A stretch of DNA of 60,036 bases, filler included, from Sphacelaria rigidula (taxonomy: Eukaryota): NCBI GenBank assembly GCA_964200075.2. It is 10 parts of 10 records of this genome, joined end to end, with 100 filler letters (N's around TTAATTAATTAA, not from the genome) between each part and the next. Parts side by side here need not be neighbours in the genome. Positions count along the whole stretch, not along the records: positions 1 to 5,914 come from CAXNAA020023528.1; 9 more parts are not named here. One strand, 5' to 3'. Shown here one piece after another: positions 24 to 694 of the stretch. Made by a program: the position numbers and the translations under genes. Each line of letters starts with the position of its first letter. Position 1 is the stretch's first letter. The notes beneath the pieces were generated by a model that ran no database searches, was not told the origin of the DNA, and was given only the letters and a program-made list of their open reading frames with translations.

Positions 24-694
24 GGAGGAAACCAAGACGAAATATTGTCCATGGGTGAAGATGCGGGGTACAAAACAAGAGGAAGAGACATGATGGAAAT
101 GAAGGGAAAAGGAGCGCTCAGACGTAAACTAGACGAGGAAGAACACCTGGAGACATACGAGGGGTTGAGAGAGGGAATAGGGATGAAAACCTATCGGCAT
201 GGCCCAATGGGAGCGACGGAAAAATTGAACTGCGATTTCGTGTGGGGGAGCTAGACCTGCCGGAAAGAAGAAAGAGATATACCAGTAGTCGAGAGGAGGA
301 GGAAGCAGATGCACAGAATCGCCCCTGTGGCACAGCAATAGAGAGCAGAAGCCATATAGTGGAAAACTGTGAAGTACACGAGGAACAGGACGTCGTAGAG
401 GGGGAAATGCGGGACGTGAACGAATGTGGCATAAAATCGTTTGATGCACTAGACAGTAGGGAGAGAACGATGGCTATACTCGGAGATAAATGGCGGCCGC
501 GGACGGCGAAACAGGACGGGAATAATATATGTAAAAGGTTTTGTCTAATGTGTGAAAGAAACTTAATGATCACCTTAATGTTGGAGGTGTTTCTATCAGG
601 AGTAGGAACGGTGCTCCGTCTCGAAAGGGATGCGTGGTCAATGATCAAACGTCTATTATAAGGCAAGCAACAAATAAGAACGCCCCCCCCCCCC
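24..694 (+). mobile_element. 5'-truncated non-LTR retrotransposon 3' end (family A) with oligo(C) tail
   Basis: Frameshifted ORFs 45-254 and 242-661 give 'LRFRVGELDL...RPCGTAIESRSHIVENC', resembling the C-terminal CCHC zinc region of LINE ORF2. Ends 'ggcaagcaacaaataagaacg(C)12'. Other copies at 6015-6062, 6919-6956(-), 26208-26397, ~31340-31725. Confidence 0.75.

Follow-up and report, generated by a model that had tools for sequence, protein, structure and literature searches.

A C-run-inserting LINE of Sphacelaria rigidula and its non-coding partner end in a common 3′ module with a likely three-helix fold

Two repeat families in the brown alga Sphacelaria rigidula end in a common 3′ module and insert into C-runs. 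In our main reading, to which we give a probability of about 70%, family A is a LINE with an endonuclease-reverse transcriptase (EN-RT) ORF and likely a counterpart of the RTE-X elements, family B is its non-coding partner, the 67-73-nt module common to both likely forms an RNA of three helices that the LINE protein recognises, and C-runs are the insertion sites of both. The pair as such is already catalogued in another brown alga, Ectocarpus. What appears to be undescribed is that the module is coding in family A, that it is kept in distant relatives with (ATT)n tails, and that most family A copies consist of the bare module.

Copies of families A and B in the window

The window is a 60,036-nt stretch that joins ten contigs with N spacers between them, the first being CAXNAA020023528.1, so the copies listed here do not form one locus. 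The source assembly (GCA_964200075.2) comprises 244 Mb in 27,214 contigs. An earlier note on this DNA had listed eleven copies, a module at 611-694 and a family B loop at 2471-2479, all of which are present. Ten of the 11 listed copies match the majority sequences of the two families; the copy at 6919-6956 lies outside these ten and was found separately, and the stub at 1-23 was recognised by eye and by a weak match only. Several copies reach further upstream than had been listed, as do those of family B at 2228-2531 and, on the minus strand, 17199-17545. In the source assembly, a family A 23-mer has 3351 exact matches and a family B 22-mer has 1586, both of them lower bounds on copy number, with 0 matches for either reversed control. 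Copies in this genome, at about 88-93% identity to their majority sequence, are older than those of the Ectocarpus elements compared below.

All positions below are on the plus strand unless the minus strand is named. The window opens with the last 10 nt of a family B end followed by C13 (1-23). Immediately past this run starts a 5′-truncated family A copy (24-682), which holds the last 659 nt of the ~6.1-kb element with a remnant of its ORF and is 88% identical to nt 5457-6115 of the A majority. This copy likely inserted into the C13 run, and the same arrangement of B followed by A is found at many loci. Its module (611-682) comprises GTGCTC at 611-616, CGTCTC at 617-622, the P2 loop GAAA at 623-626 and GGGATG at 627-632, so placed that P1 would pair 611-616 with 676-681, P2 617-622 with 627-632, P3a 637-639 with 662-664 and P3b 642-646 with 651-655; the stop codon lies at 675-677. 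Behind the module stands a C12 run (683-694), which is a target-site C-run with or without extra C's. The earlier note took this copy as its example of the fold: the sequence elements are there, but the copy is decayed, with a 5-nt insertion in P3 and a broken P1 3′ strand, and it does not form the proposed structure.

Further family A copies are an internal fragment with which the first contig ends (5758-5914, 91% identical to nt 5220-5380 of the A majority), a 3′ end that opens a contig, carries C10 and matches the A majority (6015-6062), the short diverged 3′ end with C4 (6919-6956, minus strand), a 161-nt 3′ end with a C-rich run (26210-26395, 93%), and an old fragment that ends within the module (31348-31711, 74%). 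Family B is represented by a copy of its last 304 of 563 nt (2228-2531, 90% identical to the B majority), with the module at 2459-2531, a P2 loop of 9 nt at 2471-2479 and C13 at 2534-2546; by a fragment of only the P1 5′ strand and P2, absent from the earlier list (4144-4185, minus strand); by a diverged copy (17199-17545, minus strand, 76%); by a 3′ end that likewise opens a contig and carries C4 (36085-36152, 98%); by a copy with another short B end and a C-run behind it (49982-50272); and by a 3′ end with C7 at the window edge (59980-60036, minus strand), the last two matching the B majority. The copies at 31348-31711 and 17199-17545 have no C-run.

The family B copy at 2228-2531 is intronic, since its flanking exons are joined in contigs of three runs. 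The host exons lie at 1129-1296 and 2579-2929 (plus strand), their joined frame is open, and we take the gene to resemble a CBF/Mak21 (NOC4-like) protein. The C13 run of this copy falls within the pyrimidine tract that precedes the host 3′ splice site, ~30-45 nt upstream of it. Many contigs of the source assembly start or stop inside modules or C-runs, so these repeats seem to break the assembly.

Family A encodes an endonuclease and a reverse transcriptase

We assembled family A by walking upstream through copies in the source assembly, which yielded a ~6.1-kb element that opens with a 5′ motif and continues with a 5′ UTR containing 63-bp tandem repeats and with an EN-RT ORF. The 63-bp array varies in copy number, from about 9 to more than 20 units (L148-L154). 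The majority ORF has one break, at the seam between assemblies, and intact relatives of 1328-1360 aa carry Exo_endo_phos and RVT_1 domains. The RT domain of family A matches RVT_1 in Pfam (E=3e-28) and its best PDB matches are R2 and L1 proteins, in keeping with an RT of the non-LTR type. Motifs that we take to be those of an APE endonuclease were picked out by eye in the majority translations. Full-length homologs at 71-73% contain PF03372/PF14529, on which we count the endonuclease as present; a single-copy fragment (L126:524-1390) gave no Pfam domain. The copies have the hallmarks of non-LTR elements, namely 5′ truncation, a fixed 3′ end and target-site duplications (TSDs) of variable length. 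The closest named homologs are Ectocarpus proteins that end in the C-terminal peptide of family A, and the homolog P0003 (71%) clusters with Ectocarpus CAB1110456.1.

The ORF of family A spans the entire module, which forms its last 20 codons, and the stop codon lies 5 nt before the C-run, where it overlaps the closing helix P1. Five metagenome-derived relatives share this end, with the ORF running through the module and the C-run included. A search of the source assembly for a second autonomous family with the C-terminus of P0005 returned only matches of ~40% identity, and the loci inspected were family A. Among viral contigs, a pattern scan gave 19 matches, 0 of which extend into the module, and a protein scan gave no match.

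Family B combines pieces of the LINE with a long middle of its own

Family B is 563 nt long at full length, with a discrete 5′ end and without a long ORF. It shares the last 61 nt of family A at ~83%, and the same 61 nt are 80-84% identical to those of four metagenome relatives of A. The earlier note held the families to be unrelated upstream of this module. This is incorrect, as 41 nt of family B (nt 63-103) match the 5′ end of family A at 78-83% (4 loci). Ahead of this match, nt 1-47 repeat the stretch that leads into B's own 3′ module (~nt 468-514; 2436-2482 and 50114-50160 in the window). The repeat in the head retains the P2 hairpin through G-C and U-G variants. To judge from its sequence, B may have arisen by fusion of a short 99-nt B piece ahead of a 502-nt form.

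We would therefore describe family B as built like a bipartite non-autonomous LINE. Such elements, non-coding and made of LINE 5′ and 3′ pieces, are known in the RTE, Ingi, Vingi and R2 groups, and B differs from them in its ~390-nt middle (PMC5786205, in which RTEX is mentioned 0 times). The discrete 5′ end at 563 nt and the missing long ORF would also suit a classical SINE, transcribed by Pol III and headed by a small RNA. We consider this improbable: the head consists of a repeat of B's own 3′ region and then a match to the 5′ end of A, Rfam gave no match, and hence no small-RNA head, on three full-length B loci (L040, L050, L052), and no tRNA gene was called in the window, where B copies lack the head. 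A tRNA head in particular was rejected when the true 5′ end turned out to lie another 330 nt upstream.

The 5′ end of family A (e.g. L149:222) and nt 63-103 of family B share the motif GGGTTGGCGTC...GCTRTAAAA...GCCAC, which can be drawn as an H-type pseudoknot and has no Rfam match. Several B copies begin precisely at the shared GGGTTGGCGTC motif.

The shared 3′ module likely folds

The module measures 67 nt in the A majority and 67-73 nt across both families. We scored its helices in 35 hand-chosen distinct sequences (10 of family A, 5 from metagenomes, 9 of family B, 10 from G001 and 1 from G002, both described below, and 2 from the window, minus two duplicates), a set that leaves out three further loci and one with an insertion. 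P3, composed of GUC/GGC, an internal loop, UGGxx/xxCUA and a free 4-nt loop, is paired in 96% of 280 cells and shows changes on both sides in 18; two of its pairs change on both sides, one from U-A to C-G and the other from C-G to G-C or A-U. Its paired fraction, both-side cell count and covariation score were reached by 0 of 500 shuffles, a control that ignores relatedness among what are few independent lineages (A, B, two G001 subfamilies and one G002 copy). Slid registers gave 19-51% pairing. The counts of pairs and of pair types were no better than in shuffles (483/500 and 144/500 as high).

P1 and P2 were counted with a hand-anchored script; RNAalifold recovered only P3, because the underlying MAFFT alignment misaligned the 5′ strands of the other two helices. 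The CGTCYC/GGGATG hairpin of the earlier note is our P2 and holds up well, with 215 of 218 cells paired and one clear both-side swap from U-A to C-G. Its closing stem, GTGCTC/GAGYAC or P1, fares less well: 185 of 210 cells are paired, but the helix hardly varies, is shorter in both G001 and G002, and in G001 has its second pair disrupted. A further stem proposed between GGTCA and TGACT was dropped, being paired in 79% of 175 cells without any both-side change and no better than shuffles; the second GGTC pairs instead. The minimum-energy fold of family A is the proposed structure, and that of family B is a different one, 4.4 kcal/mol lower than the proposed fold (-25.5 vs -21.1 kcal/mol). Folded singly, the sequences give z-scores that range from modest down to nil (-2.1 to +1.0). 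From the pairing counts and these modest scores, comparative evidence makes P2 and P3 well supported as real helices and P1 only plausible. That a LINE and a partner have a 3′ module in common was the core of the earlier note, and it is borne out by the EN-RT LINE, the non-coding family B and compensatory changes in P2 and P3 that extend to distant relatives, with few independent lineages among them.

The unpaired core of the module is invariant across lineages. Of 100 third codon positions compared within the module, 1 differs between family A and its five relatives, which are not mutually independent; the two adjoining upstream blocks have 10 and 21 differences in 100. One could suppose that selection acts on the encoded C-terminal peptide, G[CR]VVNGxxAxA, a version of which ends 20 of the 74 homologs scored (the pattern was drawn from those sequences), and that the stems are a by-product. 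This we regard as very improbable, since the non-coding family B keeps the module nucleotides out of frame, synonymous sites are frozen within the module, and changes in P2 and P3 keep the pairing while loops vary freely.

Rfam gave no credible match on the module or on the heads of the elements; ribozyme models matched only weakly, far below their gathering scores, and none of them on the module. A hammerhead or HDV reading of family B, weighed by eye, was likewise dropped.

C-runs at the element ends are mostly duplicated target

Scoring a C-run as at least four C's within 30 nt after the element end, we found one in 68 of 75 family A copies and 48 of 58 family B copies. In a sample taken in contig order the counts were 23/26 for A and 29/30 for B, none with an A-run of at least 5, and A-runs after the end are almost absent overall (1/133 and 0/56 copies). 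The C fraction stays above background for ~25 nt past the end. Beyond this C-rich stretch there is no common sequence except further tandem copies, and because the flanks diverge after it, the C-run marks the terminus, as the earlier note had claimed.

C-runs also precede the elements. Within the 35 nt before the 5′ junction, a run of at least four C's is found in 31 of 64 A copies and 38 of 47 B copies (20/27 and 22/25 in the contig-order sample), against a background of 10% of random 35-mers; G-runs are not enriched in these flanks. A TSD search that did not require upstream C's found duplications in 17 of 111 copies (control mean 2, maximum 6), 11 of them preceded by at least three C's, and a stricter anchor gave 19 of 150 (control mean 0.85, maximum 4). 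In 7 of these 19 TSD-bearing copies the 3′ run exceeds the target run by at least 2 nt, in 4 the two are within 1 nt of each other and in 8 the 3′ run is shorter, so that 12 need no extra C's. Tandem A/B arrangements are found at many loci. The elements thus insert into C-runs, often each other's, and the C-runs before 5′ junctions together with the run lengths at TSDs indicate that the apparent tail is for the most part target that was duplicated, about a third of the TSD-bearing copies having surplus C's. The claim that oligo(C) is an RNA tail in the place of poly(A) is accordingly borne out only in part; relatives elsewhere carry the module with (ATT)n tails.

A true non-templated poly(C) tail on the RNA, made by a nucleotidyl transferase of the host or through reiterative synthesis by the element's RT, would play a role like that of L1 poly(A), with C-rich targets following from it. 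It would account for the 3′ runs that exceed the target run by 3-16 nt in 7 of the 19 TSD-bearing copies and for the ~25 nt of raised C fraction, and RTEX-1a_Ec32 of Ectocarpus is annotated with "(C)n 3′" (PMC12477816). We nonetheless think it rather unlikely: 12 of the 19 copies can do without it, copy L238 has just two C's after its end and both lie within the TSD, the runs are short and often interrupted, and priming slippage or later microsatellite growth could yield the surplus. Duplicated target, with occasional added C's, remains our reading. RTE elements show a comparable correlation, in that the first TSD base matches the 3′ repeat in cases that are T- and A-rich; families A and B would be the C version of it (PMC6007223).

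Copy L238 is a module-only family A copy. About two TTAGGG-like units lie between its TSD and the element start, presumably telomere repeat.

Most sampled family A copies are bare modules

We took the first 30 exact family A hits in contig order, with a pattern that requires only 54 nt; 27 have a 5′ flank. As many as 23 of these 27 start 62-72 nt from the end and hence consist of the bare module, 19 of them at 64-67 nt, which is the 5′ strand of P1. Over the 31 nt that were compared, short and long copies have the same majority sequence. Loose ends accumulate at 612-614, preceded by C-runs, in contigs of three runs. Several 5′ junctions show microhomology. Family B starts cluster at about 95-99, 304-306 and 501-511 nt and not at the base of P1, and G001 copies show no pile-up at the module base, so the cause of the bare modules may be specific to family A.

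The sharp start at 64-67 nt, the sequence that long and short copies share over those 31 nt and the invariant unpaired core could be read as signs of a processing element, self-cleaving or a target of a host nuclease, which is cut at its 5′ base so that the 66-nt copies derive from a short processed RNA. This explanation seems to us unlikely: neither B nor G001 copies begin at the 5′ boundary of the module, no ribozyme or other family in Rfam matches it at a credible score, and the microhomology fits ordinary truncation. We favour cDNA synthesis that stops early, as set out below.

Distant relatives keep the module with other tails

A scan with an alignment of distant homologs led to LINE copies on contigs filed under two prokaryotic metagenome-assembled genomes, G001 and G002. 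These elements have 44-45% RT identity to family A and end in its module. The LINE-bearing loci are L166-L175 and L203-L231 in G001 and L168 and L202 in G002, and the G001 contigs are megabase-size with many copies. They are likely eukaryotic DNA that was binned into prokaryotic genomes. G001 has 38 pattern matches; of the 29 retrieved, most carry tails that are (ATT)n-like or otherwise AT-rich, and 0 end in a C-run. In a quick tree, all 25 rows with the C-terminal peptide motif fall in one group of 43 (SH-aLRT 99); the pattern derives from these data, many of the remaining 18 rows seem truncated, and the tree carries no clade labels. The presence of the module in distant relatives with (ATT)n, together with the compensatory changes, makes it likely that the fold is real, old and separable from the tail.

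A model for 3′-end recognition and insertion

In the mechanism that we propose, the module would refold once translation has ended and the LINE protein would bind it, in cis on family A RNA and in trans on family B RNA, by analogy with the LINEs of the stringent type (PMC3747384). At a C/G run, the endonuclease would nick the strand rich in G. The RNA would end in a short C-tract, likely read-through from the C-run flanking the donor copy, and this tract would base-pair with the G strand at the nick, priming reverse transcription, where occasional slippage could add C's. Cleavage of the second strand ~6-15 nt beyond the run would give a TSD that starts with C's. In family A, cDNA synthesis would often stop at the 5′ base of the fold, which we propose as the reason why most A copies are the bare module.

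More tentatively, and with the balance of our own judgement against it, the 67-nt three-helix RNA in the last ORF codons could be the ancient handle of one RTE-X lineage, present in brown algae and distant non-algal hosts and sufficient alone for mobilisation, with the tail as an exchangeable guide: (C)n into C-runs and (ATT)n elsewhere. If so, an RT whose target can be programmed through the tail would have in it a minimal and portable cis-element.

Already in the main reading, a handle that overlaps the stop codon would tie translation termination to recognition in cis, and its survival through a change of tail from C to ATT would separate recognition from target priming. The system also accounts for the thousands of C-runs that flank these repeats in the genome.

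Comparison with catalogued elements

The earlier note did not recognise this as a described system. That claim fails, because elements with these properties are annotated in Ectocarpus sp. 7 (PMC12477816). In the entries used here, RTEX-1a_Ec32 is given as "single EN-RT ORF; (C)n 3′" and RTEX-2_Ec32 with "(C)n termini/TSD", and TSDs are C-rich throughout. Like family A, these elements have a single EN-RT ORF, a (C)n 3′ end and a C-rich TSD, with a size of 5.5-5.9 kb compared with ~6.1 kb. They come from another genome, and the likeness is one of annotation and protein homology; the RTE-X label of family A is accordingly a likely one, taken from that annotation match. Family B in turn (563 nt) resembles RTEX-N1_Ec32 (607/604 bp): the entry for RTEX-N1a_Ec32, of 607 bp, has "60 bp 3′ end 83%" to RTEX-1/2, a C-rich TSD and weak homology to the 5′ end of RTEX-2, and the element "can be present in tandem". 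By these annotation features, A is an RTEX-1/2-like C-ended family and B an RTEX-N1-like partner. RTEX-N2_Ec32 is a further non-autonomous element, of 188 bp. The 5′ head of RTEX-N1 is called unknown in that source, whereas the head of B is a 47-nt self-repeat followed by the LINE 5′ motif.

In five supplements of PMC12477816 the terms "secondary structure" and "stem" are absent, and the text and supplements searched describe no RNA structure, coding overlap or module-only copies. Beyond this annotation we found no described RTE-X 3′ fold or poly(C) LINE tail in the literature searched, outside which lie Repbase Reports and most subscription journals. LINE/SINE pairs of the stringent type share 3′ stem-loops with compensatory changes, recognised by the LINE protein (PMC3747384). 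Their structure is placed in the 3′ UTR or 3′-end sequence, whereas that of family A overlaps the last codons and the stop and would have three helices. These additions offer a testable structure for 3′-end recognition in a little-studied LINE clade.

Other repeats in the window

Another repeat family occupies 56782-56982, 57579-57778 and 40326-40417 and carries, on the minus strand, the tRNA B-box-like GAGTTCGAATCC. It is possibly a tRNA-derived SINE; ARAGORN called no tRNA gene for it in the window. A tandem array with a 113-bp period and 63-85% identity spans 35029-35984. Short repeats with an 85-bp period lie at 1383-1749 and 18983-20366, the latter with a long inverted arrangement.
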